NCBI GenBank assembly: GCA_043809585.1
Contig: JBDROZ010000073.1
Location: forward strand, 42,343-106,342
Direction of reading: 5' to 3'
DNA from: Candidatus Eiseniibacteriota bacterium
Lineage (GTDB): Bacteria > Orphanbacterota > Orphanbacteria > Orphanbacterales > Orphanbacteraceae
Length of the DNA: 64,000 bases
The notes beneath the pieces are model-generated. The model was given only the letters and a program-made list of their open reading frames with translations, did no database searches and had not been told where the DNA came from. Shown here in pieces: positions 12,942 through 33,234 of this stretch. Made by a program: the position numbers and the translations under genes. Position 1 is the first letter of the stretch. Each line of letters opens with the position of its first letter.

Positions 12942-13105
12942 AACCTAAAGAGACCGCTCCCCGCGCGCTCGAGAGCGGATCGTGAACTCACTCATTGCCA
13001 GGAGCTTACCGCGGCTCCTCGGTTTCGATCCGCCGGGGCCGACCCGATTTTGAGCAAGGGCGGTCGCATTTTGCACAGGTGCCTGTCGAGGACGGAGCTG
13101 CAACG

Positions 13106-16100
13106 ATGAGCCGACACCTGATCCTCGCCGCCTTGGCGGTGCTGATCGCCCTCCCTTCGGGGACCTCCGCCCGCCGGCGTCCGCCCGATGTGTATCCCCT
13201 CCTCTACCAGCCGATGAAGTCGCGGCTCGAAAAATCGGACTTCGCGCTGATGGCCCGCTACGACGTCGTCGAGGTCGGATGGTGGGGCATCGAAGAGGCA
13301 TCGGGCAACCTCGATTCCCTCCGGGCGATCCGGACGCGGAATCCCGATTTGGTCGTCCTCTCCACCACGACTTCCACCATGCAGTGCGTCAACTGGGCTA
13401 CCGACGAAGTGTACAACAAGTACGCGTGGGCGGAGACCCTCGACGCCCACCCGGAGTGGCTCCTCCGGGACGTGGACGGCGACCTCTTCCTCCTCGCCGG
13501 CGTCGAGGAGACCTGCGACGGCGGACGGCTCAACTACTACCATCCCGAAGCGGCCCGGGCGTTCGCGAGGTTCCTCGCCGAGGCGACGGTGCTCTACCTG
13601 CCCGACGACCTCGACGGCATCATGATCGACGACCTGCAGGCGAACATCTACTACTACAACGGCTGGGGAGCCCTGCGCGCGCCGGGCGTCGACTCCCTCG
13701 ACCTCAACCAAGACGGGATCGCCGACACCAAAGAGCAGATCGACGGCTGGTGGAGCGCGGGGGTGGACACGTTTCTCGTGGCCTTCCGGGAAGTCTCCGG
13801 GCCCGACGTCATCGTCATCGTCAACGGATACGTCCCGGAGGAGGCCTTCCCCTACATGAACGGCCGCTATCATGAGGGCTTCCCCTGGGAGCACGGCGAC
13901 GACTGGGATGTGACCATGCTCGACGCGTACAAAGGCTTCCTCGGTGGGGATACGCTCTATTCGGACGTCCCCCATCGCTTCGCCGGCCTCCTGACGAACA
14001 ACGCGTCCCCCGGCTACAACTACGATCCCGACCATCTCTCCACGAAGGAAGCCCCTTTCCCGCACGTCATGTTTCCCCGGTTCCTCAACTGGACCCTCTC
14101 CTCCTTCCTGCTCGGCGAGGGCTGGTACGCCATGACCGGATGGGGAAACTCGGTCGACTGGAATGGGGAGCGGATCCAGATGCAGTACCAGACTCTCTGG
14201 TGGTTCCCGGTGTACGACACGCTCAAGAGTTACCTCGGCACGCCCGTCGAGGACTACGTGTACTACGACACGGGCGATCACCTCGAACGGTACGAGCGGG
14301 AGTTCACGGGGGGCCGGGTTCGATCGTACCGGATCCACCGCAAGGGCATCTTCGATCTGCGGCCGAGGCCGTCCCTCCGGCGTGACCCGCCGGCGGTTGT
14401 CGCCGCGGGGGAAACGGTCCGCATCGCGTGGGACTCTTTCGACCCCAACGGCGAGAACCAGCCCCTCGACGTGATCCTCCTCCTCTCCGACGACGGCGGA
14501 ACGACCTTCCCGGAGACACTCGGGACCTTCGCCTCGGCCGACACGAGCCACGGGTGGGTTGCGACGGGCCCCCCCCGGGAAGTGGTTTTCCGGGTCGCCG
14601 CGACCGACACGTCGGACCTCACGGGTTTCACCACGTCGCCGCCGGTCACCATCGCCCCCCCCCTCCCCTCCCTGAGCGGCGTGGCCGAGGTGAAGCCGAC
14701 TTTCTGGATCGCCAACACGCCGGCCCTGCTCTGCACGCTCTTCGCGTCCACCTCGGTCGATTCCGGGGCGGACGGGTGGAACCGGGCGAAGATCGTTCTC
14801 CCCGCCGACGTGCAGCTCCTCTCCTTCGCGGGAGCCGAGCGGGACGGCCTCCCCCTCCCCGCTACCGCGACGGTCTCGGGGGACACGGTGACGATCGATC
14901 CGGAAGGGGCGATCGGGGGAGACGCCGTGGTCGGGCTTCGTCTTCTCGTGAGCGCGCCGGCCCTTCCCCTCGAAGACTCGCTCCGGTTCGCCGTCTCCGT
15001 GGACGACACCCTCACGCCGGGGGGAGCCGCGAACCTTCCCGCCGGTGACGGGAACGGCATTCCGGGGGACGGGGACGTCCTGACGGTGGCATGCGATTTC
15101 GGGCCACCGGTCGCCCTCGACATGGTCCCCGAGGCGATCATGGTGAGCGCGGGGGACACGACGCGCTTCGAGACCACCGGCCTCGACGCCGCCGGCAACG
15201 CCTTCGAAGTGACGCCCCTCTGGTCCGTAACCGACACCCTCGGGACCGTGGACGACGAAGGGCTCTTCCGGGCGATCCGGCCGGGGTCGCTCTCGGTGGT
15301 CGCGGAGTTCGCGGGCCTCATGGCGTCCGCCCCGGTCTCCATTCTGCCGGGGGCGCCGCACGAAGTCGTCGTCCAGCCGGAGAGCGTGACCGTCAGCGTC
15401 GAGGAGGACTCGGTCCGGTTCACGGCCCGGGTCTACGACGGGCTCGGCAACCTCGTCGATTCGGCGACCCCCGTGTGGTCGGTGGAGGACACGATCGCCC
15501 GTGTCGACGGTCCGGGTCTCGTGGTCCCCCTCCACCCGGGCGAGACGGGCGTGACCGCCGAGGCGGGGGGCGTCACGGGCCGAGCGGCGCTTCGGATCGA
15601 ACCGGGGGCGCCGGCGACGATCGTGATCGAACCGGACAGCGTTACCGTCACCACCAATACCGACTCGGTCCGGTTCACCGCGACCGTCTATGACGCCTTC
15701 GGCAATCCCTTCGGGGGCGCCTCTATCAGCTGGGCCGTGGAAGACACGATCGCCCGCTTGGACGGACCCGGCCTCGTCATTCCCCTTTACCCGGGGGCGA
15801 CGGGGGTGACCGCGGAGCTCTCCGGCATCACCGCCCGCGCCGGAATCCGGATCCTGTCCGGCAGCGCCGTGAGCGTGGCCATCGTTCCGGAGAGCGTCAC
15901 GGTGACGCCCAACGTCGAATCGGTCTCGTTCTCGGCGCGGGCGTACGACGTTCTTCACTACACCGTCCGGGGGGCGGTCTTCTCATGGACCGTGGAGGAC
16001 ACGATCGTCCGTCTCGACGGACCGGGAGTGGTGGCGCCCCTCGCCGAGGGGAGGACGGGGGTGGCGGCCGAAACGGATTCCGCCTCGGCCCGGGCCGGAA

Positions 16101-19100
16101 TCCTCGTCGAGTCCGGAGCCCCGGTGAGCGTCATCGTCGAACCGGAAAGCGTGACGGTGACGGCCGACGCCGACTCGGTCCGGTTCACGGCGACCGCCTA
16201 CGACGTTCTCGGCCACGCCGCCCCGGGGGCGGAGTTCTCCTGGACCGTGGAGGAGACCCTCGCGGTCCTTCTGGGACCGGGCCTCGTCGCCCCCCGGTAC
16301 GCCGGCGAAGCGACGGTGGCGGCGGAGGCCGGAGGCGTGGAGGCGTCGGCCGCCCTTCGTATCGAGCCCGGCGCCCCCGCGTCGATCGTCGTCGAGCCGG
16401 AGAGCGTCTCCGTGACGACCGACACGGGACCGGTCGAGTTCGCGGCCTTCGTCTACGACGCCCTCGGAAACCTCGTCCCGTCGGCGGAGCCCGCCTGGGC
16501 GGTGGAGGACACGATCGCGATCATGGACGGACCGGGCATCGTGATCCCTCTCCGCCCCGGCGAGACCGGCGTGACGGCCGCCGTGAACGGAGTCACCGCC
16601 CGCGCCGGGATCCGCATCGGCGAGGGGGCGCCCTACGCGATCGTGATCGAACCGGACAGCGCCGCCGTGACCACCGACGCCGACTCGGTCCGGTTCACGG
16701 CCTTCGTGTACGATGCCCTCGGCAACCCGCTCGAATCGGCAGAGCCCGTCTGGGCCGTGGAGGATACGATCGCTCTTCTGGACGGACCCGGCCTCGTTTC
16801 GCCCCGCCGGCCCGGGGAAACCGGAGTGACGGCCGCCTGGAGCGCCGTGGTCGGCCGGGCCGGGCTCCGCGTCGACCCGGGGGCGCCCGCGACCGTGGCG
16901 ATCGCGCCCCAGAACGCCGTGCTCACCGAAAGCGACACCCTCCGCTTCCACCACAATGCGCGGGACCGGTACGGCAACCTCCTCTCGACCGAAGTGGCCT
17001 GGTCGCTTTCGGGAGGAATCGGCGTCATTGATGAAGCCGGCCTCTTCACCGCCGGCGCTCCGGGCGAGGGATTCGCCGTGGTCACGGCGGGGGAAGCCGA
17101 GGCGTCGGCCCACGTGGTCGTCCTCGACGCCCCCGTGACGGCGGCGTTCCTCGCGCCGGCGGGAGCCGTGATCGACGCCGACTCGGCGCTCCAGTTCCAA
17201 TACCGGGGGATCACCTCCGTGGGCGACACGATGATTCTCAACGCCTCTTGGAGCATCCTCGGCGGGGGCGGGTCGATCGACGAGGATGGTCTTTACCTCC
17301 CCGGCCCCGCGGGCGAATTCTCCGTCGTCGCGTCCAAGTACGAATTCACCGACACGGCGTCGGTGGCCGTTCTTCCCGGCGCGCCCCGGTCGATCGAGAT
17401 CGAACCTCCCGCGGCGGAGATCGCGGCGGGCGGTTCCCTCGCCGTCACGGCGCGGGTGGAAGACGCCCACGGGAACCTCGTGTCCGAGACCGCGCCCATC
17501 CGGGCCGAGGGTCTTTGCGAGGGGCCCGTGGACGGACTCTTCACTTGCACGCAGGCGGGCGATGCGATGCTCGTCGCGGAGCACGGGGGGCTCGCGGACA
17601 CGGCGGCGGTTACCATCGTTCCCGGACCGCCCGCCCACCTGGCGGTGCAACCGGCTTCCGCCGAACTCTTTATCGGGGAGACGCTCTTCGTTTCCTCCTC
17701 GGTGTCCGACGGCTACGGAAACCCCTTGGACACGGCGGCGGCCTGGGAGATCGAGGGCGGGTCGTTCGACTCGGGACGGTTCGTTCCCGGCGGCCCGGGA
17801 CCGGCCTCTCTTGTCGCCCGCCTCGGTCCCCTTGCGGACACTTGCGCCGTGACGGTCCGGCGACGGCCGCCCGCGTCGATTACGGTCTCGCCCGGCTCGG
17901 CGTCGCTGGTCGTCGGCGGCACCTTCGATTTTCAGGCGTTCGTCGCGGACGAGGCGGGCAGCCCGTTGGACACGGCCGTCGCCTGGGAGGCGACGGGAGA
18001 AACGGGCACGGTGTCGGACGGGAGGTTCACGGCGACGGGTGCGGGCGAGGGCCGTGTGATCGCCCGCCTCGGATCCCTCGCCGATTCGGCGGAGGTGATC
18101 GTGACCGACACTTCCGCCCCGCCGCCGCCGGTACCGGGCGTGGTCTCGGTGCACGCCTTCAAGCGGACCGTCCCCGGCTCGGAGTGGCTCGACCCTCTCG
18201 CCCTCTCGGGGGCGTATCACGGCGAGGGAGACGACACCCTCGAGGCGCCCGGGCCGGAGTCTCTCACGGTGATCCTCCGACCTCTGGGCGACGGCGTCGC
18301 ATCGTGCGTGCCCGAGCTCCGCTTCCCCGTCGTGCGGGCCCTGCCGGACACCTTCTCCATCCCCCTCGCCGGCCTCGGCGGCCTCGGCGGTTGCGGCCTC
18401 GTGGAGGTCGCTCTCGAAGTTCCCGGCGGGGCCGAGCCCCGGGCCGACACGATCCGGTTCGGGAGTCCCGACCTCTCCGGCGATCTCCGGGTCGGCCTCG
18501 CGGACGTGGCGGCCTTCCTCGCGGCATGGAACGGCGCCGAGGCTTCGAACTGCGCCGACGTGGACGGAGACGGCGCCCTCGGCCGCTCGGATCTCGCCGT
18601 CATCGAAGGGGCGTTCGATCTCGGATGCGGGGCCGAACCGGCGGGAGTCCCCTTCGATAGGGGGATCCCGAACTGGTACTCCTTCGCCGACGCGGTCTGC
18701 GACGATTCCGCGGCGGGGGACGATTCGGTGGCGGCCCGTTTTCTCCTGGAGCCGGCGGGCATCGAGTCCCTCCGGGCGTTGGAAATCACCTTCCCCTCCC
18801 CCGGCGGCGGCGCCGTGGAATGGTCCCCCACCCCGATCTGGACGGCTCCCCGGGTGACCGAACTCCCCTCGGCGGAGGGGGAGGTCCGGGTTCTCCTGAC
18901 CGAGGAAGCGGGTCTCCTCCTGCCCCGGGGATCGGACCTCGTGGAAGTGCGGATCTGCGGCATGTCGGGTGAGGAGTTTACCGGGTCTCTTTCGAAGGTC
19001 CGCGTCGTGGGGGCCGGGTACGAGGCGTCGGCGGCTCTGGACGTCCCGATCCTCCTCCTCCTCGACACGGAGGACACGACCGGCGGCCGGCCGGACACGA

Positions 19101-19405
19101 CGGAGGGCGACCCCGAGGAGCCTCTCCGCTTCGCGCTCCACCCGAACCGGCCGAATCCGTTTCGGGGGGCCACCACGATCCGGTTCAGCGTCCCCGCCCC
19201 CGGCGGCGACGTCCGGCTCTCGGTCTACAATCTCCGCGGGGAAGAGGTCGCTATCCTCAGGCAGGGGGAGGCGGGCGCGGGCGTCCACGCCATCGAGTGG
19301 GACGGAAGAGACCGGCGGGGACGGCCCCTCGCCCCCGGCCTCTACTTCGTCCGTTTCGTCGCGGACCCCATGGCGTCGACGAAGAAGATCGTGCTTCTGC
19401 CCTAG
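13106..19405 (+). CDS. ~2100-aa secreted protein: putative glycoside hydrolase TIM barrel, tandem Ig-like domains, dockerin-like pair, FlgD-Ig C-terminus
   Basis: Signal peptide MSRHLILAAL; HPEWLLRD, DGIMIDD, NGRYHEGF; repeated GAP..V.PESVTV units; DLSGDLRVGLAD/ADVDGDG; PNRPNPF..WDGRD..GLYF. Confidence 0.85.
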   Translation: MSRHLILAALAVLIALPSGTSARRRPPDVYPLLYQPMKSRLEKSDFALMARYDVVEVGWWGIEEASGNLDSLRAIRTRNPDLVVLSTTTSTMQCVNWATDEVYNKYAWAETLDAHPEWLLRDVDGDLFLLAGVEETCDGGRLNYYHPEAARAFARFLAEATVLYLPDDLDGIMIDDLQANIYYYNGWGALRAPGVDSLDLNQDGIADTKEQIDGWWSAGVDTFLVAFREVSGPDVIVIVNGYVPEEAFPYMNGRYHEGFPWEHGDDWDVTMLDAYKGFLGGDTLYSDVPHRFAGLLTNNASPGYNYDPDHLSTKEAPFPHVMFPRFLNWTLSSFLLGEGWYAMTGWGNSVDWNGERIQMQYQTLWWFPVYDTLKSYLGTPVEDYVYYDTGDHLERYEREFTGGRVRSYRIHRKGIFDLRPRPSLRRDPPAVVAAGETVRIAWDSFDPNGENQPLDVILLLSDDGGTTFPETLGTFASADTSHGWVATGPPREVVFRVAATDTSDLTGFTTSPPVTIAPPLPSLSGVAEVKPTFWIANTPALLCTLFASTSVDSGADGWNRAKIVLPADVQLLSFAGAERDGLPLPATATVSGDTVTIDPEGAIGGDAVVGLRLLVSAPALPLEDSLRFAVSVDDTLTPGGAANLPAGDGNGIPGDGDVLTVACDFGPPVALDMVPEAIMVSAGDTTRFETTGLDAAGNAFEVTPLWSVTDTLGTVDDEGLFRAIRPGSLSVVAEFAGLMASAPVSILPGAPHEVVVQPESVTVSVEEDSVRFTARVYDGLGNLVDSATPVWSVEDTIARVDGPGLVVPLHPGETGVTAEAGGVTGRAALRIEPGAPATIVIEPDSVTVTTNTDSVRFTATVYDAFGNPFGGASISWAVEDTIARLDGPGLVIPLYPGATGVTAELSGITARAGIRILSGSAVSVAIVPESVTVTPNVESVSFSARAYDVLHYTVRGAVFSWTVEDTIVRLDGPGVVAPLAEGRTGVAAETDSASARAGILVESGAPVSVIVEPESVTVTADADSVRFTATAYDVLGHAAPGAEFSWTVEETLAVLLGPGLVAPRYAGEATVAAEAGGVEASAALRIEPGAPASIVVEPESVSVTTDTGPVEFAAFVYDALGNLVPSAEPAWAVEDTIAIMDGPGIVIPLRPGETGVTAAVNGVTARAGIRIGEGAPYAIVIEPDSAAVTTDADSVRFTAFVYDALGNPLESAEPVWAVEDTIALLDGPGLVSPRRPGETGVTAAWSAVVGRAGLRVDPGAPATVAIAPQNAVLTESDTLRFHHNARDRYGNLLSTEVAWSLSGGIGVIDEAGLFTAGAPGEGFAVVTAGEAEASAHVVVLDAPVTAAFLAPAGAVIDADSALQFQYRGITSVGDTMILNASWSILGGGGSIDEDGLYLPGPAGEFSVVASKYEFTDTASVAVLPGAPRSIEIEPPAAEIAAGGSLAVTARVEDAHGNLVSETAPIRAEGLCEGPVDGLFTCTQAGDAMLVAEHGGLADTAAVTIVPGPPAHLAVQPASAELFIGETLFVSSSVSDGYGNPLDTAAAWEIEGGSFDSGRFVPGGPGPASLVARLGPLADTCAVTVRRRPPASITVSPGSASLVVGGTFDFQAFVADEAGSPLDTAVAWEATGETGTVSDGRFTATGAGEGRVIARLGSLADSAEVIVTDTSAPPPPVPGVVSVHAFKRTVPGSEWLDPLALSGAYHGEGDDTLEAPGPESLTVILRPLGDGVASCVPELRFPVVRALPDTFSIPLAGLGGLGGCGLVEVALEVPGGAEPRADTIRFGSPDLSGDLRVGLADVAAFLAAWNGAEASNCADVDGDGALGRSDLAVIEGAFDLGCGAEPAGVPFDRGIPNWYSFADAVCDDSAAGDDSVAARFLLEPAGIESLRALEITFPSPGGGAVEWSPTPIWTAPRVTELPSAEGEVRVLLTEEAGLLLPRGSDLVEVRICGMSGEEFTGSLSKVRVVGAGYEASAALDVPILLLLDTEDTTGGRPDTTEGDPEEPLRFALHPNRPNPFRGATTIRFSVPAPGGDVRLSVYNLRGEEVAILRQGEAGAGVHAIEWDGRDRRGRPLAPGLYFVRFVADPMASTKKIVLLP
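15347..16876 (+). repeat. Six tandem 255-bp (85-aa) Ig-like repeat units
   Basis: Units start at about 15347, 15602, 15857, 16112, 16367, 16622, each with W.VEDTI..DGPG. Confidence 0.85.
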
Positions 19406-19479
19406 CCTGCGCCGCCCACCCGCTCCCGCGGCCTTGGCGCCCCGCGGGCCATGCCCCGGAAACAGCGCGGAAACGAGGA

Positions 19480-20289
19480 TCAGTACTGCCCGAGGGTTCC
19501 GTCCCGCCGGGCCCGGCGGATGGCGAACCGCGCGGCCAGCCATCCGAGGAGGAGGGAGAAGACCGTGAAGAGGGCCCGCGCGCCCAGCTCCCTCTTCAGA
19601 TCGCCGAGTCCCTTCCCCGAGAGCAGCGCCATCCGCATCCCTTCGAGAGAGTAGGTGAGGGGGATCACGCAGGCCGCCTTTTGGAGCCACCCCGGCAGGA
19701 TCGCCACCGGGTAGTAGACACCCCCGAGGAGCCGGGAGAGGGACGTGAACAACCAGTTCACGGGGTTCCCCCTCTTCAGCACCAGGATGAAGCTCGCCGC
19801 GAGAACCCCGAGGCTGGAGAAGGCGACCACCGTGAGGGCGAGAAAGAGAAGGGCCGCTCCGTAGTTCGGATTCCGGAGTTCGAGCCCGAAAAAGAGGAGG
19901 CCGAGCAGAAGGTAGATCACGATCTGGAACGATGCCCAGAGAAAGCTCCAGAGAGAGGAGGAGAGAAGGTACGTGGAGAAGCGTGTCGGCGTCGCGAGGA
20001 CGGCCTCGAGGGTGCCGAGCACCTGCTCGTCCCGGATCCGGTTGGAAAAGGAGTTCAGGCCCGTAGAGAGATAATTCGAGACCGCCACCCCGATGAGGAC
20101 GAAGGAGAAGTAGTCCCCGCCGTACGATTCGAGATGGGGATTCATGGTCGTGTCGATGAGTCGGGAGAGAAAATAGAAGAGGGTGAGCGTGAATCCGATG
20201 CCGAACACCTGCAGGAGGAAGGCGAGCCGGTAACTCGTCGCCACCTGCAGGTCCTTGTGGAGAAAGGCGAGGGGTTTCTCGAAGCTCAC
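19480..20289 (-). CDS. ABC-2 type exporter permease
   Basis: Six TM helices, GTLEAVLATP, YYPVAILPGWLQ..PLTY. Confidence 0.92.
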   Translation of the reverse strand: MSFEKPLAFLHKDLQVATSYRLAFLLQVFGIGFTLTLFYFLSRLIDTTMNPHLESYGGDYFSFVLIGVAVSNYLSTGLNSFSNRIRDEQVLGTLEAVLATPTRFSTYLLSSSLWSFLWASFQIVIYLLLGLLFFGLELRNPNYGAALLFLALTVVAFSSLGVLAASFILVLKRGNPVNWLFTSLSRLLGGVYYPVAILPGWLQKAACVIPLTYSLEGMRMALLSGKGLGDLKRELGARALFTVFSLLLGWLAARFAIRRARRDGTLGQY

Positions 20290-21293
20290 TCGTCCCCCCC
20301 CGCGTACCTCTTGTAAAGCTCCTCCAGCGATCCCCGGCGCACCTCGAGGCGCCGGACCGGTCCGCAGCGATCCAACAGTGCCGGGAGAAAGGCGGAGAGA
20401 TCGAAGGAACGCTCGTCCACGCGAACGCGGCCCCGTCCGCGGGCCTCGTCATCACCCGACACCACGACCTCCAAGACCCCGGCCAGCGTCTCGAGGGCCC
20501 CCTTCCATCCGGGCCGATGTTCCGCGAACTCCACCTCGATCTCCCGGGGAATGTGGAACCGGTCGAGGACTTCGTCCGGCGGCCCGTCGGCGAGGAGTTC
20601 CCCCTTGTGAAGAAAGAGCAGACGATCCGCGACCTTCTCGACCGCGCCGAGATCGTGGCTCGCGAGGAGGATCGCCCGGCCTTCCTCTCCCGCCAGCCGG
20701 CGGAGCCTCCCGAGGAAGCGGGATGCCGTGTAGGGGTCGAGTCCGCGGGTCGGCTCGTCGAGGAGAAGCACGGGCCGGGCGCCGAGCAGAGACCGGGCGA
20801 CGCCGAGTTTCTGCCGGGTCCCCGTCGAGTAGGTCATGAACCGGTCGTCGATCTCACCGATGCCGAGAAGGTCGGCGCCGTCGTCGATCTCCTCCTCCAG
20901 GCGGGCGCGGGGGACGCCGAGGAGGCGGCCGAAGAATCGGAGGTTCTGCCGTCCGGTCAGACGGTAGTAGAAGCTCCGCTCCTCGCTCATGCAGATCCCG
21001 ATGTGCGCCCGGGTCTCCAGGGAATGACGCTCCACGTCCCGCCCTCTGATGAACGCAATCCCCTCGGTGGGGAGCACCAGCGAGGCGAGGATCTTGAGGA
21101 GCGTCGATTTTCCCGAGCCGTTCGGGCCGAGAAGCGCGACGATTTCCCCTCCCCGAAGATCGAAGCGGACCTGGTGAAGGGCCCGGATCGTCTCCTTGCG
21201 GAAGGGCCGGCGGACCGAAGCGCCGAGACTCCTCCGGAGGGGATACCGCTTCGAAACTCCTTCCACGCGGAGAGCGGCGCCCCGGCCCTTCAC
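20286..21293 (-). CDS. ABC exporter ATP-binding subunit
   Basis: GPNGSGKST, YSTGTRQK signature, LLLDEPTRGLD, SH switch. Confidence 0.95.
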   Translation of the reverse strand: MKGRGAALRVEGVSKRYPLRRSLGASVRRPFRKETIRALHQVRFDLRGGEIVALLGPNGSGKSTLLKILASLVLPTEGIAFIRGRDVERHSLETRAHIGICMSEERSFYYRLTGRQNLRFFGRLLGVPRARLEEEIDDGADLLGIGEIDDRFMTYSTGTRQKLGVARSLLGARPVLLLDEPTRGLDPYTASRFLGRLRRLAGEEGRAILLASHDLGAVEKVADRLLFLHKGELLADGPPDEVLDRFHIPREIEVEFAEHRPGWKGALETLAGVLEVVVSGDDEARGRGRVRVDERSFDLSAFLPALLDRCGPVRRLEVRRGSLEELYKRYAGGDE

Positions 21294-22480
21294 GGCCGGG
21301 CCCGGAAGCGCGAGAGGAGGAGGTGGGCGGCGAGGTCGGTGAGTGAGGCAAGACCGGCGAAGAATCGTCTCACCCGGCCGGAGGCCCGGTCCGGCCCCTC
21401 TTCGCTGAAGAACATCTTCGCCCGGAAGTCTTCGTCAGGAAAGAGAAGTCGCCCCATGAACGATCCGGGGCTCCGACCCCCGAAGTGGTAACCGTTCCAG
21501 AGACGGAGTCGGATCTCCCGGCTCGCCCCCACCCCGAAGAAATCTCTCCCCCGGAAGCGCGAGGCGAACCGCCGGACCCATCCGTTCCCGGCGACCCCCG
21601 GGAACGCCCCTTCTTCCCCCCAGAACCGTTCGAGAAGATAAAGAGAAGCGGCGACCTCCCGGGGAATGCCCCACGATTCGCCGCGCCGGAGAATTTCCCC
21701 GGCCGGCGTCACGCGGCGGAGGCGCCGAGCCATGCGCTCGAGATCGACCATCCGCTTGAGCGAGGCGAACTGGGCCATGCGGAGACTCGCGCAGAGGTGA
21801 GCGACCTCGTCCAGCGGGGAGAGCACGCGAACCGGAATCCCCCGATGTTCGTAGGATCCCGCTTCCCGGAAGAGGGCTTCCGTGTCGACCGCGAGTCCTT
21901 CGGGGTGGGGAAGCAGATTCCAGTGGAGTTCGACCACGTCCACGCCGAGCCCCCGCCGGGCGTAGACGACATGGAAATGGTGGCGCCGGTAGTAGGCGCG
22001 GGAGTGAATCCCCTCGAAGAGCGTGTATCCGAGCCCCGTGAGTGTCCGCTCCGCCCCGGTCAGGTACTCGAAGGGAACGAGGAGATCGAGGTCCCTCGTC
22101 TCCCGGAGCGATTCCTCGGCGTAGAATCTGCCGGCGAAGCAGAGCCCCTTCAGAACGATCGACGGGATGCGGGAGTCGTCGAAGGCGGAAAGAACCTGGC
22201 GGAGTTCCCTCTCCTTCAAGAGGGACCGGGCCACCGTCTTCTCCCCCTCCGCCGTGATTCGCCGCGCGAGCCCCTCGGGAACCAGTTCGGCGAAGGAGGA
22301 GCCGGGGCCGAAACGGTGGGCGACCACCGGCACGACGCGGGAGGTGAAGAGGATCTCCTCGAAGTAATCCCAGTCGAACCACTCATTCTCGCGCCGGATC
22401 CGTTCGAGCGTCAGACGGTCCGGATCCCCCCGGAGGAGCTCCCGGAGGAACGCGATCTCCCCGTCCAAACGAAACCCCAC
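21290..22480 (-). CDS. Nucleotidyltransferase family protein (NTP_transf_5 type, RiPP-associated)
   Basis: LKG..FY....R.T.DLDLLV, VELHW. Confidence 0.88.
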   Translation of the reverse strand: MGFRLDGEIAFLRELLRGDPDRLTLERIRRENEWFDWDYFEEILFTSRVVPVVAHRFGPGSSFAELVPEGLARRITAEGEKTVARSLLKERELRQVLSAFDDSRIPSIVLKGLCFAGRFYAEESLRETRDLDLLVPFEYLTGAERTLTGLGYTLFEGIHSRAYYRRHHFHVVYARRGLGVDVVELHWNLLPHPEGLAVDTEALFREAGSYEHRGIPVRVLSPLDEVAHLCASLRMAQFASLKRMVDLERMARRLRRVTPAGEILRRGESWGIPREVAASLYLLERFWGEEGAFPGVAGNGWVRRFASRFRGRDFFGVGASREIRLRLWNGYHFGGRSPGSFMGRLLFPDEDFRAKMFFSEEGPDRASGRVRRFFAGLASLTDLAAHLLLSRFRARP

Positions 22481-22502
22481 GGCACGGCTCCTTCCCGGAG
22501 GA

Positions 22503-22967
22503 TCAGTCGGCGCGAGGGAGGGTGAACACGCAGGTATAGCCCCGCCAACTCTCCTCGTTCTCGAGAAAGGGAGTCCCGTCCACCGCGAGCCAGGAGTGAC
22601 CCCGCAGGTCTCCCTCCCCCCGGCTGACGCCGAAGCAGATGCTCACTTCGATCCCGCTCTTACGGAGAAGATGGGCCAACAGCAGGGAGCGGCGCAAGCA
22701 CGTTCTGCGGAACGGGAACCACGGGGACCGGAGAAGTTTCTCGGCGAGGGCGTGGGAAATGGCGGCCCATTCGAGGTCCGCCTCCCGGACCGCGCCCGGA
22801 GGGGCCGGCGGATGAAACGTCTCGACGCGGCGGAAAGGAAGGAGGACGAAGATGCGAAAGGCGGCGCCCACCCCCTCGAGGAGGAACTTCAAGTTGCGAG
22901 AGCGCAGAAGGACGCGGGACGGGAGCGGTCTCTCGAGGATCGTTTTTTCCAGTTCTTCCGAATCCAC
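22503..22967 (-). CDS. Lasso peptide B2 leader peptidase (transglutaminase-like)
   Basis: TCLRRSLLL..L...G....ICFGV......GHSWL.VDG. Confidence 0.88.
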   Translation of the reverse strand: MDSEELEKTILERPLPSRVLLRSRNLKFLLEGVGAAFRIFVLLPFRRVETFHPPAPPGAVREADLEWAAISHALAEKLLRSPWFPFRRTCLRRSLLLAHLLRKSGIEVSICFGVSRGEGDLRGHSWLAVDGTPFLENEESWRGYTCVFTLPRAD

Positions 22968-22997
22968 CCGTTCCTCCGAACCGCCGGCGACCGACGC

Positions 22998-23963
22998 TCA
23001 GGAGACCTCGGCCATGAACCGCTCGATCCGGTAAGGGAGGCGCCGAAGGTCGCGCCCGAAGAGAAGGCGGTGGCTCCGGACTTGGCCCACCAGATCCCTC
23101 AGGAGGGAGATGTGCTCCTCCACCCGATCCCGGTCGGCGGGAAGAACCGATTGGGGGAGGAGCCGAACCATCGCCTCGTGGGGCGAGAGGGATTCGAATT
23201 CGCTCCGGTCCGAATCGTGAATCTCAGGGAACAAGAGAAGCTCGGGCCGAACGCCCGAAATCCGGCCGGGGGGGGGCAGGAGATCCTCTCCGAGAAGGAA
23301 CTTGCGGCCCTTCTGCACGAGGCGCCCTTTCCACTCGGGAAAGTAGGCCGCCGTTCCCCGGCCGACCTTGACCGGTTCGGGGAAGGGATCGAGGAGAACC
23401 TCCCCGCCGGCGCGGGTCAGGAACAGCGTGTCGTCGGAAGCGAAAGGACAGCCCGCGGCGATCGCCGCGAGGGCGGCGGTCGACTTGCCGACGCCGCTCG
23501 ACCCGCACACCACCACGCCCCGGCCGCCGACGCGGAAGCACGACCCGTGCAGGGGGAACCGGCCTCGGTCCCGGAGCCACTCGAGGAGGGGGATGAAGAA
23601 GAGGCGGTGGCCCACGACCCATCCATCCTCGAGGTGGTCGGGATGGACGTAGCCTTCCACCCGCCCCGACGGGAGGTCGTAACGGGCGGCCGACTTCTCT
23701 TCCACGGCCACCCAACTTTCCCCCGCCCGGCCGTAGAGAGTGAAATCCCCGCACGCCGACTCGGCCTTCCGTTCCCACCCCGCGAAGTCGGGTACGGGAT
23801 CTCCGTCGCCGCGCACCCGGAGGTCGAAGGAAAGATCGGGAGAATCGTCGAAGGGGTCCCGAACCAGGAGGAACGCCGCCTCGAGAACACCCTCCCGAAT
23901 CCGATCCCCGCCGCAGAGAACCCGGATCCGGTGTCCTAGGAGTTCGAGAAAAAGCGTGTCCAT
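22998..23963 (-). CDS. HPr-kinase-like peptide kinase
   Basis: PLHGSC..GSSGVGKST..ASDD. Confidence 0.85.
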   Translation of the reverse strand: MDTLFLELLGHRIRVLCGGDRIREGVLEAAFLLVRDPFDDSPDLSFDLRVRGDGDPVPDFAGWERKAESACGDFTLYGRAGESWVAVEEKSAARYDLPSGRVEGYVHPDHLEDGWVVGHRLFFIPLLEWLRDRGRFPLHGSCFRVGGRGVVVCGSSGVGKSTAALAAIAAGCPFASDDTLFLTRAGGEVLLDPFPEPVKVGRGTAAYFPEWKGRLVQKGRKFLLGEDLLPPPGRISGVRPELLLFPEIHDSDRSEFESLSPHEAMVRLLPQSVLPADRDRVEEHISLLRDLVGQVRSHRLLFGRDLRRLPYRIERFMAEVS

Positions 23964-23973
23964 AACGATCCGA

Positions 23974-24258
23974 TCAGGAGGCGACGGATACGATCAGACC
24001 TTGCTCCTGCAGGCGGCCCGCGAGTTCGATGCAATCCTGCAGGGCCGTGCCCTCGTCCACGTCGAATTGCTCCACCACGCGGCGCGCGATCTCCGCCAGG
24101 CTTCGCTCCCCGTCGATCTGTCCCCAGATGAACTGTCCGGTCTTGTTCAGGCTGAAGTAATAGCCGCTCTCGAGATCCACCAGAATCCCTTTGCCGTCAA
24201 TGGTCCTCCAGGGCACGTTCGGAGAACGTTTCACCACCGTAGAAGCTTGAAGCGTCAC
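23974..24258 (-). CDS. PqqD-family RiPP recognition element (lasso B1/E)
   Basis: YYFSLNKTGQFIW..IDG..SLAEI......FDVD....QD....L.EQGLI; GTG start after GAGGA. Confidence 0.92.
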   Translation of the reverse strand: MTLQASTVVKRSPNVPWRTIDGKGILVDLESGYYFSLNKTGQFIWGQIDGERSLAEIARRVVEQFDVDEGTALQDCIELAGRLQEQGLIVSVAS

Positions 24259-24327
24259 AGGCGTTTCCTCTTCGCCGCTCCGCCCCCCCCCTTGTCGGGG
24301 GACGGCCCGAGCCGCGTGATTCACGAG

Positions 24328-24366
24328 AAAAAAGCGGGGGAGCCCCGTAGGCCCGGTCTCCCCCGC
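24328..24366 (-). terminator. Intra-operon terminator/stabilising hairpin between precursor and RRE
   Basis: 9-bp stem GCGGGGGAG/CTCCCCCGC followed by T6 on the minus strand. Confidence 0.7.
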
Positions 24367-24394
24367 GCTTCGCCTTCCATCCCGGAACCGTTCG

Positions 24395-24544
24395 TTACGA
24401 ACCCCCGCCGCCGGTCGGGTGATGATCATCGCCCACGAAGAGTTCGCGCCGGGAAAGAAGCGTGATGTCCTTCAGCGTGCCGTGCCTTACGAGCTCCGGC
24501 TTTTCGTAGAAGCGGTGCTCCTGTCGCTGCTCTCGGTTCTCCAA
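24395..24544 (-). CDS. Lasso-type RiPP precursor peptide, 49 aa: MENREQRQEHRFYEKPELVRHGTLKDITL-LSRRELFVGDDHHPTGGGGS
   Basis: TTG start 6 nt after AGGAGG; YxxPxLxxxGxxxxxT leader motif; directly upstream of the RRE; too short for the ORF track. Confidence 0.9.
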   Translation of the reverse strand: MENREQRQEHRFYEKPELVRHGTLKDITLLSRRELFVGDDHHPTGGGGS

Positions 24545-24699
24545 GACGCACCTCCTAGGGGTTCACCCGGTCCGGCGGGGCAGGAACCCCGAAGAGGCCG
24601 GGAGGAACCTCTCTCTGCCGCGGAACCTCCGGTAGAGGGGCAAGACCGACGCGGCGGTCGGACCGTCCCGGGCTTCGCGGCTCATCTCATTCCGAGGGC

Positions 24700-24728
24700 A
24701 GTCTACTTCGCCCCCTTCCGACTGTCAA
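24700..24728 (-). promoter_or_regulatory. Sigma-70-type promoter of the RiPP operon
   Basis: TTGACA-N17-TAGACT. Confidence 0.72.
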
Positions 24729-24774: not shown

Positions 24775-25356
24775 CTATAGCGTTTCAAAGGCAAATGGAT
24801 CCGATCCCTCGGGCCCACCGGCCCGGACCGCATACCAGTAGAAGGCGGCCACGACCAGCGCGTGAGCAATCTCTCCCTCCCGGATCATCCGCCACACCTC
24901 CGCCTCCCGCACCCGGAAGACCTCGATCTCTTCCCCCGGATCGAGCCGCTGGGGGCCGCGGAGAACGGCGTTTTCGGCGAGGTAGGTGAAACAACGGTTC
25001 GTCTGGAACGCCGGGTTCGGCTCCACTGTTCCGATGTGCACCAGCCGTTCCGCTTCGTATCCCGTCTCCTCGCCCAGTTCCCGGCCGGCCGCCTCCGCGC
25101 CGTCCCGGTCGGCCCGGTCGATTCCCCCCCCGGGGATTTCAATCGTGTAGGCCCCTGTCCCGTGACGGTACTGGCGAATGAGCACGATCTCCCCCTCGGG
25201 CGTGACGGGCACGACGTTCACCCAGTCGTTGCTCTCGAGGACGGTCCACTCCTTCTCGAATCCGGTTTCGGGGGAGACGGACCGGTCGAGCCGTAGCGTG
25301 AAGATCGAAAAGTCCCCGGCGGGACGGGTTTCCGTGGTCTTCCAATCCCGTTTCAT
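24775..25356 (-). CDS. Nudix hydrolase (ADP-ribose pyrophosphatase-like)
   Basis: LIRQYRHG..EIPGGGID..AAGRELGEETGY; LDPGEEI. Confidence 0.92.
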   Translation of the reverse strand: MKRDWKTTETRPAGDFSIFTLRLDRSVSPETGFEKEWTVLESNDWVNVVPVTPEGEIVLIRQYRHGTGAYTIEIPGGGIDRADRDGAEAAGRELGEETGYEAERLVHIGTVEPNPAFQTNRCFTYLAENAVLRGPQRLDPGEEIEVFRVREAEVWRMIREGEIAHALVVAAFYWYAVRAGGPEGSDPFAFETL

Positions 25357-25730
25357 CGTTCCCCTCTTCCCCTGGAACGGGTCTCCCAACCTCCCTTCCT
25401 CCGCGATCGACCGCAAGGCCACAGGGCGGCGTCCTCGGGCAAGACGTCCGATCGGCCTTCGTGGGCCTCCTCCGGGCGTTCTCACCCTCGACCTCGCCGG
25501 CCGGCCATTCGCACGATCTGGCCACGAAGGAAGTCATGAAACCGACTCGGAGGTTTTTCGAATTATAGTCGCGCCCCAGGAACCGGGCAAGGAGGTCGCA
25601 ATTGACTTCTGCTCCCCCGGCGATGTAATGTGATGGAGCGTCGACGACTATCGGGGCGTAGTGAAATTGCCCGCGGCGCCCCTCGGTTCCACACCCCGGT
25701 CCGTCCCGGACCGGCAGCACCGGGATCATC

Positions 25731-26480
25731 ATGGAATTCTATCCCGAAGACAGCGGTCTCCCTTCCTACCTGATCGTTCCCGTCAGGGAGAGCGAGAGGA
25801 TCCGCCTCCTCCACGATGACGAAGATCCTCTTTGGAAGAAGGATCGGATCCTCGCCTTCGACGACTGGGAGGAAGCGGCCGCGTTCACACGCCGGCGGTG
25901 GCGGAAGAAGGTTCACTTCCTCCTCGTCGACGGCGCGGCCTTGGACGAAGGCCGGTTCCGCCTCCGCCGCGACAACGGCCTCCTCTGGATCGACGGGGCG
26001 GTCCCCCGACGTTACGTCCTCAACATCGACATTCCGACGCGCCGGCAGATCAGCGCCGGCGGAGTCCTTCGATTTGACGGCGCGGGCACCCCCCGTCTCG
26101 CCCTCATCCAGGTGGAACGGAACGGCGTCCTCCGGTGGGAATTGCCGAAGGGCAAACTTCGCCGTCGCGAATCGTCGACCCGAGCGGCGGAACGGGAGGT
26201 GAGGGAAGAAACGGGCATCGACGTCCCCCTCGAGGTGGGGAAGGCGATCGGCCGCGTGAATTACACGTTCCAGGCGAACGACGGGCGCCTGTATTACAAG
26301 ACGGTGCGCTATTTTCTCCTCCGCGCCCGGGGCGAGGGTGATCTCCGGCCCCGGGACGAGGAAGGGATCGTGGACGCCCGCTGGTTCCCTCACGAGAACG
26401 CCTGCGAAATCGTCTCCTTTCCCAATCTCCGTCCCATCCTCCGGCGGGCTTCCGCCGCGCCGGTGGACGCGGGAAAATAA
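25731..26480 (+). CDS. Nudix hydrolase with N-terminal degenerate KptA/Tpt1-like domain
   Basis: SAGGV, WELPKGK..E....AAEREVREETG; N-terminal ~100 aa resembles the KptA C-terminal domain by eye. Confidence 0.85.
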   Translation: MEFYPEDSGLPSYLIVPVRESERIRLLHDDEDPLWKKDRILAFDDWEEAAAFTRRRWRKKVHFLLVDGAALDEGRFRLRRDNGLLWIDGAVPRRYVLNIDIPTRRQISAGGVLRFDGAGTPRLALIQVERNGVLRWELPKGKLRRRESSTRAAEREVREETGIDVPLEVGKAIGRVNYTFQANDGRLYYKTVRYFLLRARGEGDLRPRDEEGIVDARWFPHENACEIVSFPNLRPILRRASAAPVDAGK

Positions 26481-27759: not shown

Positions 27760-28371
27760 TCAGATTTTTCGGAAGAGCCCCGTCACCTTCCCCACGATCC
27801 TGAATTCACCGTCCGTTGGATCGACGACGATGGGAGGCATGGTCCTGTTCTCGGGATGCAGCTCCACCCGGTTTCCCTTCCGGTAGAACCTCTTGACCGT
27901 CGCCTCGTCGCCGATGAGCGCGACCACGATCTCCCCGTTCCTCGCCTCGTTCGCCGGGCGCACCAGGATGAGGTCGCCGTCGGCGATGTGTGCTTCGATC
28001 ATGCTCTCCCCGTTTACACGAAGGAGGAATTCGTCCTTTCCCTGGAGAAACGAGGGATCGATCGTGATTCGATCCTCCACGTTCTCCTCCGCCAGGAGCG
28101 GGGCGCCGGCGGCGATACGGCCGATGAGCGGCACGCCGGCGTTACCCTCCTCGAGTACGGGACCGAGAAGCTCCACGGCCCTCGATTTCCCCATCACCCG
28201 GCGGATGTGCCCTTTCCGTTCGAGGGCGGTCAGGTGATCGACCACCCCTTTGGTGGAGCGGATTCCGAAACGGAACCCGATCTCCCGGATGGTCGGCGGA
28301 TACCCGTTCTCCCGGTAGTACTCGACGAGGTAGTCGTAGATTTCCTGCTGCCTCGTTGTCAGCGACTTCAT
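27760..28371 (-). CDS. lexA: SOS repressor LexA
   Basis: LTTRQQEI, GYPPTIREI, IAAG cleavage site, GESM (Ser), ATVKR (Lys). Confidence 0.97.
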   Translation of the reverse strand: MKSLTTRQQEIYDYLVEYYRENGYPPTIREIGFRFGIRSTKGVVDHLTALERKGHIRRVMGKSRAVELLGPVLEEGNAGVPLIGRIAAGAPLLAEENVEDRITIDPSFLQGKDEFLLRVNGESMIEAHIADGDLILVRPANEARNGEIVVALIGDEATVKRFYRKGNRVELHPENRTMPPIVVDPTDGEFRIVGKVTGLFRKI

Positions 28372-31079
28372 CGTGCCTCCCCTCGGGACATGGAACGGCG
28401 GCCCCTTCCGGGGCCCTTCCGGTCGACAGAGTCTAAGAAAGAGAATGCGGTCTGGGCGCTCGCCCTCCTGCTTCTCTTCTTGCGGGGGGCGGGGTCTCTC
28501 CGGTCGGCGCGGACCGCCTCCGGACTATAGTCCCCGGCCTCCTCCTTGGCGATCGATCTCTTCTCGTCCTCCCGTTCCATGGTCATCCTTTCCTCCCGGC
28601 CACGGAAGACGCGGGCCAGTTCGAGAACGAGGGGGCGCGGAAAGCGCCGTGCCGCCAGGCGCTCGAGAAGGTCCGCGGTGCTCCGGAATTCCCCCCGGAT
28701 CTCCCGCTCCTCCTCGAACCGGGCGGCCCATTCCGCCGTCATTCCCCGTACGATCCCCAGTCCGGCCCTCACCCGGTCCCCTTCCCGCCGGAAGCGGTAG
28801 CAGCTCCGGTTCATATGGAGAGGGAGGAACGTGACGCCTTCCCGCCGGAGGCCGGCGGCGAGCCCCCGGGGGTCTTTCGCATCGATGATTCGGGCGGAGA
28901 GGGCGGCGGCCGCGAATCCGACCGGGTCCGCCCCTTTCCTCCGCGCCCCTTCGACGATTCTCCCGGCGACGGGCTCGAAGTCTCCGCGGCAAGGGGCGTC
29001 CGGCGCGAGGGCGAGCAAGAGGGAAAAGAAACGGGACACCACGGTCCCGTCCGCACCCCGGTCCGCCGCCTTTCGCAGGAAGAGGGCCCGCTCCCGGGCG
29101 AGGGAAGCCCCATCCTCCCCGGAGACCGCATCGAAGAGTCGTTCCGTTCGGCCGGCGTCGTATCCCGCGAAGTGGCGGACCACGGCGGCGAGCTGCTCCC
29201 GGAAGAAGGGGATCCCCCCCGTTTCCGCGAGAAATGCTCCCGACTCGGGGATCGTGAGAGGCGCGGGGCGATCACCGGAACGGACGGCGGCGATCCTCTC
29301 GAAGAGATCCATCCTCGTTCGCCGCTTCGCCCCGGTCGCCAAGAGCACGGCGAGGTCATTCACCGACTCCGGCGGGAGAATCCGGAGAAGATCACGGAAA
29401 GGGGGCATCCCGGAGGGAGCGAGCCCGGCCAGGGCGCCCCGCCGGATCAATTCCCAGGGACGGCCGCCTTCCTCGGACCCCCGGGCGAGATTCCGGGTCT
29501 CCCGGAGAACGCCGAGGAGGGAAGAATCGGAAACGCGAAGCAGTACGGCGGCGGAACCGGCCGGCCCGGTCGACAGGGCAAAATCCCAGAGACGGACCGG
29601 GTCCTCGGCCCATAGGAGGGTGCGGCGATCCCGGCGATAACCGGCGATCACACGTTCGAAGACCCGTCGCTCTCGAACCCCCGGAAGAGGAACCGGACCG
29701 CGGTTCCCCCGGTGGGTAACGCCGGAGGGGCTCGCGGTGGGTGGGTGTGGTTTCGGTCCGGTATCCTCTCCCGGGAGGGGACGCTCTTCCGCCTTCTCGA
29801 ACTCCGACGGGTCCGGCGTGTCGGGGATCAGCAGGGTCGCCGTCTCCCCCGGATGACGTTCTTCGACGAGCTTCCGGAGACGGGTCGCCGTCCGGCGATC
29901 GGCCTCCACTTGTAAGACCCGCGAACCGGCGGAGGAGAGCGGCGCCATCAAGTAACCCCGATCGATCGGATCCGTATCCTGGAGATCGAGCAGGTATCCG
30001 AGCAAACTCCCCGACAGGAAGGTCGTCATGATTTCCACGTCAGGTTCGGCGTTTCGAAGACTCCTAAAAAGCCGGGAAAGACGGATGGCGAACCGGTGGA
30101 GCCCCGCCCCCTCGATCCGCCAGAATTCGTCCCAGAACCGGCTCTCGATCTCCTTCCGGCGCGAGTGAAACCGGCCGCCGTACCTTTTCGCGAGGCGTTC
30201 GATGCAGAGGCGGATCAGCTCGTCCGTTTCCCGGCCGCCCGCGGGGGGGGACTCTTCCCATGCCGCGCCCCGGCACCGTTCGACGATCTCCGAAGTCGCG
30301 GCAAGCGCGTCCGGGGCGTCTTCGTAGCGCCGCTCCCACTCCTCCCTCGAAGGAAGATGGGCCGCGATTTCGTCGGCGAACGGATCGGTCGGGTCTTCCG
30401 AGGTCGAGGGCGGAACGGTTCGCATCACCCGCTCCCAGAGACGCCTCTCTCCGGCTTCGAGATAGCGGACCGGGTCCGCGGCGAGCCGACGGAGTCCGTG
30501 CCGCTCCGCGATCTCGCCGAGAAACGGTTCGACCAGACGCTCCCTCTCCGAACCGGCCCGGGTGGTTTCGAGGAAGAAGCGCTTCGCTCCGAAGCGCCCG
30601 GCGAGAAGTCGGGCGAGCCGGCGGGCGTCCCCCACCCGTCCTCGGGCGAAAGCGCCCGACACGGGTCCGGCCAGTCCACCGCTCCCGACGATCCAACCGT
30701 TCGCGGCGTCGGCGAATTCGTCCCACTCCGCGGCCCCCCGGATCCTCTCCGGGCGGTCGTCCCGCCAGATCTTCTCCAAGAGCCGGGAGAGCGCCTTCAT
30801 TCCCTCGGTCGATTCAGGAAAGACGGTGAGGACATAAGCGGGCGGAGGGAGACCGCCCCCGGGACGCGAAAACCGCACCACCACCTCCGCCCCGGCCACG
30901 AGAGCGATCCCCTCATCCTCGAATGACGCGCGGGCCTCCGCGAATCCGAAGAGCACCCCCCGGTCGACGATCGCCCCGCCGTCGTACCCGGCCCGTCTCA
31001 GGGCGGCGGCGAGATCGGCGGGCTCCACGATCGACCGGCGGGCCGAGTACCTTGTCTGGATTCGAAGAGGCGCGGGCAT
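28368..31079 (-). CDS. Degenerate DNA polymerase III alpha (DnaE)-like protein, catalytic motifs apparently lost
   Basis: DnaE-like landmarks in order: PHP-like start (QTRYS..AIVDRG..G), SGSLLGYLL...TDPI, ETGGIPFFREQ, LPLHMNRS, GLGIVRG, RGEFRS; ATG 31079 after GGAGGG. Confidence 0.75.
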   Translation of the reverse strand: MPAPLRIQTRYSARRSIVEPADLAAALRRAGYDGGAIVDRGVLFGFAEARASFEDEGIALVAGAEVVVRFSRPGGGLPPPAYVLTVFPESTEGMKALSRLLEKIWRDDRPERIRGAAEWDEFADAANGWIVGSGGLAGPVSGAFARGRVGDARRLARLLAGRFGAKRFFLETTRAGSERERLVEPFLGEIAERHGLRRLAADPVRYLEAGERRLWERVMRTVPPSTSEDPTDPFADEIAAHLPSREEWERRYEDAPDALAATSEIVERCRGAAWEESPPAGGRETDELIRLCIERLAKRYGGRFHSRRKEIESRFWDEFWRIEGAGLHRFAIRLSRLFRSLRNAEPDVEIMTTFLSGSLLGYLLDLQDTDPIDRGYLMAPLSSAGSRVLQVEADRRTATRLRKLVEERHPGETATLLIPDTPDPSEFEKAEERPLPGEDTGPKPHPPTASPSGVTHRGNRGPVPLPGVRERRVFERVIAGYRRDRRTLLWAEDPVRLWDFALSTGPAGSAAVLLRVSDSSLLGVLRETRNLARGSEEGGRPWELIRRGALAGLAPSGMPPFRDLLRILPPESVNDLAVLLATGAKRRTRMDLFERIAAVRSGDRPAPLTIPESGAFLAETGGIPFFREQLAAVVRHFAGYDAGRTERLFDAVSGEDGASLARERALFLRKAADRGADGTVVSRFFSLLLALAPDAPCRGDFEPVAGRIVEGARRKGADPVGFAAAALSARIIDAKDPRGLAAGLRREGVTFLPLHMNRSCYRFRREGDRVRAGLGIVRGMTAEWAARFEEEREIRGEFRSTADLLERLAARRFPRPLVLELARVFRGREERMTMEREDEKRSIAKEEAGDYSPEAVRADRRDPAPRKKRSRRASAQTAFSFLDSVDRKGPGRGRRSMSRGEAR

Positions 31080-31102
31080 CACGGTCGTTCCCTCCACGGG
31101 CG

Positions 31103-31152
31103 GTTCACAGACTACTGAACAAAAGATACTAGACATTTGTTTCCGGCGTCAA
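31103..31152 (-). promoter_or_regulatory. Promoter of the dnaE-like/lexA operon with candidate LexA operators
   Basis: TTGACG-N18-TATCTT; AAAC-AAAT-GTCT within the spacer; GTTCA-N8-TGAAC palindrome just downstream. Confidence 0.55.
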
Positions 31153-33155: not shown

Positions 33156-33234
33156 AGAAAAGAAAAGGGGTGCCTGGTGCGGTAACACCCGACACCCCAC
33201 AACCCCGACGGCCCGTGCAAGACCGTGGTCGGGA

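Follow-up and report, generated by a model that had tools for sequence, protein, structure and literature searches.

A cyclase-less, lasso-derived RiPP operon of Candidatus Eisenbacteria that probably makes short linear phosphorylated peptides

The window analysed here is a stretch of 64,000 nucleotides from Candidatus Eiseniibacteriota bacterium (assembly GCA_043809585.1, contig JBDROZ010000073.1; contig 73 of a 4.24-Mb assembly, completeness 97.5%). It carries on its minus strand, at 19480-24728, an operon for a peptide that is synthesised ribosomally and then modified post-translationally (RiPP). The operon encodes a precursor peptide, a discrete RiPP recognition element (RRE), an HprK-like kinase (K), a lasso-type B2 protease, a nucleotidyltransferase (N) and a two-gene exporter. 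With a probability of about 0.62, it is a cyclase-less, lasso-derived pathway that operates in the manner of the Linear Polyphosphorylated Peptides (LPPs) of Bacillota and makes short linear phosphorylated peptides. This reading is founded on the gene content, the intact motifs of the enzymes, the lack of a cyclase in 9 genomes, the conservation of the operon, an invariant serine in the precursors and a leader spacing identical to that of LPPs.

The open reading frames (ORFs) and the Pfam and NCBIfam matches delimit a single compact unit. The precursor gene (24395..24544, minus strand; 49 aa) has a TTG start and an AGGAGG sequence at 24556-24551, 6 nt before this start. Its product passes the lasso leader model NF033521 of NCBIfam (lasso_leader_L3; 23.4 bits, cut-off 19). 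The sigma-70-like promoter upstream of it (24700..24728, minus strand) reads TTGACA-17 nt-TAGACT, with 10/12 consensus matches; one promoter-like site was found where 0.2 are expected in shuffled sequences, and the assignment is a consensus match only. The RRE, PqqD-like and of the lasso B1 type, is encoded at 23974..24327 (minus strand; PF05402, 66.7 bits; domain at about 23992-24186). The listed RRE ORF (151 aa, from 24429) overlaps the precursor gene; the start codon is uncertain and the true start probably lies downstream of a hairpin at 24347-24335. This terminator-like hairpin with its T-run (24335..24347, minus strand) is G+C-rich and short. Placed 48 nt past the stop codon of the precursor gene, it falls within the RRE ORF if this is read in its long form, and may act as an attenuator that sets the ratio of precursor to enzymes; its statistic is weak (10 such sites in the region, 5.7 +/- 2.6 in shuffles). 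In a phmmer search of the Protein Data Bank (PDB), the RRE matches TbiB1 (25.6 bits), PbaB1 (9x90; 25.3) and TfuB1 (24.4); with NF033530 and NF033536, the PqqD models for lasso clusters, it scores weakly and below both cut-offs.

The kinase (22998..23963, minus strand; 321 aa) scores 33.2 bits with Hpr_kinase_C (PF07475), just under the cut-off of 33.3. Its P-loop and DD motif are kept, and H139, G154, G159, K160, D177 and D178 are invariant in the alignment. HPrK structures align with it at the P-loop only, and a complex prediction for kinase and precursor gave a score of 0.02 and a mark of 0.32. Most of the kinase homologues P0121-P0145 carry the precomputed Pfam label PF27840.1. The B2 transglutaminase-like cysteine protease (22503..22967, minus strand; 154 aa) passes NF033537 (66.7 bits, cut-off 33); C90, H124 and W126 are invariant together with canonical lasso B2 proteins, and the gene is in single copy in its genome. 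The NTP_transf_5 nucleotidyltransferase (21290..22480, minus strand; 396 aa; PF14907, 129.5 bits) is the only protein of the genome that passes the PF14907 cut-off. Its invariant residues (K111, G112, R126, D130, D132, H186, D246) include a KG...R...DxD motif. Its AlphaFold2 model (pLDDT 87, pTM 0.86) is nearest in fold to MenT1, LnuA and ANT(2'')-Ia (TM-score by target 0.60-0.68), and the predicted core is that of a small-molecule or tRNA nucleotidyltransferase. MenT1, LnuA and ANT(2'')-Ia transfer a nucleotide onto a hydroxyl group. The exporter is formed by a DrrA-like ABC transporter ATPase (20286..21293, minus strand; PF00005, 98.4 bits; best NCBIfam match TIGR01188 drrA, 175.9 bits, below the cut-off of that model) and a DrrB-like ABC-2 type permease, the last gene of the operon (19480..20289, minus strand; PF01061, 68.3 bits). 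All the parts named by the original prediction, and the convergent gene end at 19405, lie where it had placed them; it was also right that the kinase and the nucleotidyltransferase are the only modifying enzymes of the operon.

The window contains no recognisable cyclase, as had been claimed, and a whole-genome search with Asn_synthase (PF00733) gave no match on its contig. The genome has four PF00733 matches, all on other contigs: two strong ones and two weak ones below cut-off. Against TIGR01536, the AsnB equivalog, the two strong matches exceed the cut-off of 267.1 with 461.9 and 451.2 bits; against NF033535, the model for lasso cyclases, they reach 199.8 and 225.8 bits, far short of the required 525. 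Both proteins start with Met-Cys-Gly and so have the amidotransferase nucleophile; lasso cyclases usually lack this Cys of AsnB. The two genes are ordinary AsnB. Used as queries, they gave no match in the eight syntenic loci of the family, a set of 9 genomes made up of the host genome and 8 others. The cut-off of NF033535 is reached in none of these 9 genomes (top score 250 bits). The system has no cyclase and its product is almost certainly linear; the linear, unknotted product first proposed is retained.

Cyclase-less B2 loci are not confined to the family. In a census, B2 matches turned up in 46 of 401 sampled genomes; outside the family, 45 places were fetched and scored with home-made profiles built from sequences of this analysis. 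An AsnB-like gene is found within 10 kb in 17 of the 45 loci. When only loci flanked by 8 kb or more on each side are counted (27), an AsnB-like gene is present in 12 and absent from 15; B1/B2 genes alone are therefore no mark of a lasso cluster and should not be read as "lasso" in genome mining. The 15 cyclase-less loci include 8 with a kinase, 5 with a homologue of N and 10 with an RRE. Their share agrees with a remark in the RRE-Finder paper that about half of the discrete lasso-type RREs (~4,000 of ~8,000) are without peptidase and cyclase (PMC7470986). Several cyclase-less loci encode a B2-like protease and an HprK-like kinase along with other genes: a radical S-adenosylmethionine (SAM) enzyme in L070; radical SAM, a sulfotransferase and a GHMP kinase in L030; radical SAM, SPASM, N and an ABC-2 transporter in L085. 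L081, with the same protease and kinase types, encodes three precursors rich in Cys, and the ORFs scanned there include no radical SAM gene.

The leader of the window precursor comprises Y13, P16, L18, H21, L24, I27 and T28 and is followed by the invariant Ser31. Across 13 aligned precursors Y13, P16, H21, I27, T28 and S31 are invariant. Counted from the tyrosine, the spacing is Y0, P3, hydrophobic 5, H8, hydrophobic 11, T15 and S18. The lasso-like spacing reported earlier (Y-17, P-14, L-12, G-8, T-2) and the core positions are read directly from the translation. The numbering of Ser31 as core position 2 presumes a B2 cut after Thr-x, although the cut may instead fall after Thr. Precursor genes lie next to the operon not only in the window but also in G001, G003 and G005 (two copies), as well as in metagenome loci. 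A precursor profile search found further ones remote from the enzyme genes, one of them in the host genome. This orphan second precursor gene (contig 21, outside the window; L039:1501-1629) has an x-S-F-x-P-P core and no C-terminal Ser. It is flanked by genes for a secreted protein of the type IX secretion system type (FlgD_ig) and a BNR/sortilin-like protein, a setting kept in 7/8 orphan loci of other family genomes compared with L039.

Two sets of cores were compared: 16 distinct cores of the family, and a wider set from a search of 5.8 billion proteins (best 120 of 121 relatives, 119 of them with YxxP and Thr at +15). Ser occupies core position 2 in 16/16 family and 110/119 wider cores, and Phe position 3 in 9/16 and 96/119. 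The core starts with x-S-F-x-[P/A]-P in 6/16 and 88/119, and many cores are proline-rich. The Asp or Glu at core positions 7-9 that a lasso ring uses is present in 7/16 family cores, which is chance (7.3 expected by shuffling), and in 46/119 wider cores (30.8 expected). Cores devoid of any acidic residue number 1/16 and 39/119; cores of at most 8 residues, 0/16 and 49/119. Many related cores are thus unable to form a lasso, being 7-8 residues long or acid-free. In the control, precursors of cyclase-bearing census loci, 6/7 have Asp or Glu at position 8 or 9 after Thr-x (by eye). The loss of the ring rule goes with the absence of the cyclase, since precursors at cyclase loci keep the acid and these cores do not; this is the co-variation that the original prediction wanted checked. 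Judged by their sequences, these peptides as a family cannot be lasso peptides. Source names in the wider set include Eisenbacteria and Krumholzibacteriota. NCBI labels 3 of the 120 listed precursors as lasso-family RiPP leader peptides, a label that is likely misleading for such precursors. Eight relatives (P0100, P0104, P0107-P0109, P0114, P0117, P0120) share the leader and have no Ser; their cores are of the Cys-x-x-W-Q-C type, followed by a proline-rich tail, and they probably represent another modification class on the same leader.

The operon is conserved as a whole. A kinase homologue is present in 8/8 other family genomes. Six loci (L023-L028) have the complete series NUDIX, precursor or gap, RRE, K, B2, N, ATPase, permease; two further ones (L007, L008), limited by contig ends, have it in part. 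Identity across the 8 family loci is 42-82%, and 73-82% for the permease. The operon is syntenic in 6 genera of Candidatus Eisenbacteria and is also found on 6 metagenome contigs, in a search whose patterns pick up close relatives only; it is compact and alike in all family loci compared, with nothing inserted. Because synteny runs for many kilobases on both sides (GT4 glycosyltransferase, LexA, DnaE2-like polymerase, sulfatase), the operon is an old, vertically inherited chromosomal segment. A search for sequencing runs listed 3 of DNA type, all belonging to one study, and no RNA data.

LPPs, as described by Popov et al. (Nat Commun, May 2026; PMC13381572), are made in Bacillota, to which they are stated to be restricted, by systems with no cyclase. 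Their leader consensus is YxxPxVLxHQxIxFETxxS, with Y-16, P-13 and T-1. The LPP kinase is reported to put up to four phosphates on core Ser3, an activity that S3A abolishes, and the unphosphorylated precursor to be poorly cleaved (PMC13381572). The comparison made here is with this published description. Both systems combine an RRE of the discrete kind, a kinase that is HprK-like and an NTP transferase with no cyclase. Both have hypervariable C-terminal cores and one to three precursors per system. The leaders are equal in YxxP, in the distances from Tyr to Thr (15) and from Tyr to Ser (18) and in His at +8, with hydrophobic residues at +5 and +11 in both, and it is from these equal distances that an LPP-like pathway is proposed; here all these positions are invariant or nearly so, and the Q9, F13 and E14 of the LPP consensus are absent from the leaders described here. 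The two also differ in host (Candidatus Eisenbacteria, not Bacillota), in the RRE, which here resembles lasso B1 structures, and in inheritance: the operon is part of a vertically inherited, syntenic chromosomal region, not patchy, and its precursors are partly in trans. The original prediction of a lasso-derived RiPP class without the knot holds as regards a cyclase-less, linear and conserved system, not as regards an unknown class, since LPPs, which are cyclase-less and lasso-related and combine a kinase with an NTP transferase, have been published (PMC13381572). The operon is best described not as a clean LPP member but as a B2-dependent variant that works like LPP, possibly of independent origin. 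Literature searches for a cyclase-less B2/kinase system outside Bacillota yielded only Popov et al. 2026 and the remark in the RRE-Finder paper (PMC7470986); the supplementary lists of the former may include B2-linked or non-Bacillota cases.

Several elements of the proposed pathway are taken by analogy: where phosphate is added, how the steps are ordered, what N does and that the product is exported. The discrete RRE would bind the YxxPx[L/I] motif of the leader (step 1). The kinase would phosphorylate, perhaps repeatedly, the invariant Ser 18 residues past the Tyr, at core position 2 (step 2). The B2 cysteine protease would cut the leader off beside the invariant Thr (step 3); lasso B2 proteins normally cleave after Thr-x, and such a cut makes the invariant Ser core residue 2. 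The NTP_transf_5 enzyme may put a nucleotide-derived or sugar group on the phosphate (step 4), and the ABC-2 transporter would export the short linear peptide (step 5). The enzymes of the operon would also serve the second, unlinked precursor with its x-S-F-x-P-P core.

Several points weigh against an LPP-like pathway. The protease is a B2 cysteine protease and not the SpI-like (SipW-like, archaeal-type signal peptidase I) serine peptidase LppS; the sole S24-type protein near the operon is LexA (27760-28371). The exporter is a two-gene ABC-2 system and not an MsbA-like pump. LppB (9x8z) is unmatched by the RRE at E<=10 in the phmmer search of the PDB. Because the RRE matches lasso B1 structures and not LppB, the resemblance to LPP may be convergent rather than by descent. 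The putative phosphorylation site at the invariant Ser rests on spacing and invariance. LppN was inactive in the published heterologous host (PMC13381572), so that the role proposed for N by analogy is unproven even in the LPP reference family. The adjacent core of the window itself has no SFxPP motif of the kind found in most relatives and has a C-terminal Ser; for this peptide alone, the modification site may be C-terminal. Lastly, the nearest census relatives of the kinase come from clusters mostly with a radical SAM enzyme and often with Cys-rich cores, and K in that lineage may be accessory to another modification.

The last point leads to an alternative that is unlikely, though it survives better than the others: K and N would be accessory, an enzyme whose gene lies elsewhere, such as a radical SAM enzyme, would carry out the class-defining modification, and the product would not be a simple phosphopeptide. 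The kinase tree was built from 39 census kinases (rows under 230 residues were excluded, as was the duplicate L045). The Eisenbacteria kinases are monophyletic (100/100) and nested in a 14-row clade (99/96), all rows of which come from loci where no cyclase was found, a placement that speaks for the LPP-like reading; 15 of the 18 rows in the other half of the tree are supplied by cyclase-bearing loci. The deeper joins are unsure, with long branches. The kinase sister loci L030, L070 and L085 carry radical SAM genes, and in this family precursors can sit far from the enzymes, which makes trans-acting parts plausible. Cassettes of the SynChlorMet ScmC/ScmD, GeoRSP and HprK-related kinase A/B type, the nearest census relatives of this kinase, likewise lack a cyclase; they combine an HprK-like kinase with a PqqD-type RRE and, in many cases, a B2-like protease. 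SynChlorMet/GeoRSP-type cassettes, however, carry radical SAM enzymes and mostly Cys-rich cores, whereas the operon has neither, and its scores with the NCBIfam models for SynChlorMet, GeoRSP and HprK-related kinases are far under cut-off. The kinase-linked radical SAM enzyme has no close homologue in the host genome (best E 1.2e-6, 25-26% identity). Cys is present in 0/16 family cores (9/119 in the wider set), the neighbours of the orphan precursor are secreted proteins and not enzymes, and the uniform, insertion-free build of the operon also argues against a missing partner.

Less probable still is a linear peptide phosphorylated and decorated on a C-terminal Ser, in the style of paeninodin and pseudomycoidin. 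HprK-like kinases of lasso clusters modify the C-terminal Ser, and in the pseudomycoidin cluster N adds a hexose to the phosphate, according to a review (PMC8498205). The paeninodin and pseudomycoidin clusters share with the operon B1/B2 processing, an HprK-like kinase, an NTP-transferase gene beside B2 and a transporter (PMC8498205), and the adjacent precursor of the window does end in Ser. These clusters, however, possess a cyclase resembling asparagine synthetase, an Asp/Glu at core positions 7-9 and a C-terminal Ser that is conserved, none of which holds here, and kinases of their type sit in the other, lasso-associated half of the kinase tree. Ser is the last residue of only 4/16 family and 19/119 wider cores, against the near-universal Ser2, and the second precursor of the host genome lacks it. 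The GGGG-Ser tail, initially taken as the handle for modification, therefore gives way to Ser2, the invariant hydroxyl, which is spaced from YxxP like the phosphorylated Ser3 of LPPs (PMC13381572).

A true lasso, closed by an unrecognised or in-trans cyclase (for example an AsnB paralogue, or N as an adenylating enzyme), is very improbable. It would account for the lasso features of the operon (B1-type RRE, B2 protease, YxxP and a Thr at -2 in the leader), and two AsnB-like genes are present in the genome; of the other features of a lasso biosynthetic gene cluster, a macrolactam cyclase is lacking and Asp/Glu at core positions 7-9 is not conserved. Both AsnB genes have the scores and the Cys1 nucleophile of ordinary AsnB, and the cores, with acids at 7-9 at chance level in the family and with many proline-rich, acid-free or too short to thread in the wider set, do not suit a knot. 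If the cut fell one residue further downstream, the window peptide would offer Ser1-Asp9, a ring described earlier as legal; counted from that invariant Ser, an acid at 7-9 is present in only 9/16 family and 39/119 wider cores, and the acid-free and shortest cores could not close such a ring either. A decaying, functionless remnant of a lasso cluster, to which the missing cyclase and the rule-breaking adjacent core might point, is scarcely credible, because seven genes remain intact and collinear across 6 genera and in metagenomes, the catalytic residues of K, B2 and N are invariant and the cyclase-less state is common to the whole kinase clade; as originally held, this is no decayed copy of a cyclase-bearing cluster, since the homologous operons of the family are all cyclase-less and syntenic.

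The reading as a cyclase-less, LPP-like pathway for linear phosphopeptides can be extended, tentatively, to a large unrecognised family. The operon would be the enzyme set for linear peptides of 7-23 residues with an x-pSer-Phe-x-Pro-Pro core in Eisenbacteria, Krumholzibacteriota and relatives. These would be matured by lasso-type B1/B2 and never knotted. The system would have an origin independent of LPPs, from the kinase lineage shared with radical-SAM RiPP clusters, and would belong to the core genome, with two secreted proteins flanking the fixed locus of its main precursor. If true, this core-genome retention and fixed precursor locus would point to a housekeeping role in signalling or in the cell envelope rather than to an antibiotic. 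Relative to LPPs, novelty lies in the dependence on B2, in the phylum, in a core-genome location combined with trans-encoded precursors and in more than 100 very short x-S-F-x-P-P cores. If the LPP-like reading is true, linear phosphopeptide RiPPs reach beyond Bacillota into uncultured Gram-negative phyla, and the lasso B2 protease serves a lasso-free pathway, an intermediate form between lasso and LPP clusters. The x-S-F-x-P-P core with its tail of a few residues is a simple substrate for probing the function of the kinase and of the nucleotidyltransferase.

Other features of the region are as follows. Directly upstream of the operon lie two divergent NUDIX hydrolase genes (24775-25485, minus strand; 25731-26480, plus strand); both are syntenic in the family, as is the whole region. 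The first was considered as a member of the cluster; this is unproven, since with the whole neighbourhood syntenic its adjacency is unspecific. LexA (S24 peptidase and DNA-binding domain) is followed by a 922-aa PHP/HHH_6/pol III finger protein (27760-31136 for both, minus strand), and the two look like an SOS mutagenesis polymerase pair. On the other side, a convergent 2136-aa ORF (12995..19405, plus strand) ends at 19405, facing the operon; its product contains numerous Ig-like repeats and, at the C-terminus, a sorting-type domain. A 1490-aa antisense ORF at 15983-20455, which overlaps real genes, is an artefact of high G+C. Elsewhere, the low-G+C locus L031, which has an RRE, K and N and lacks B2, was considered as a possible true LPP cluster; it shows no SpI-like gene and, by eye, no precursor, and was not used. 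Within the window, G+C falls to 0.55-0.58 at 32001-36000, compared with 0.64-0.72 elsewhere.

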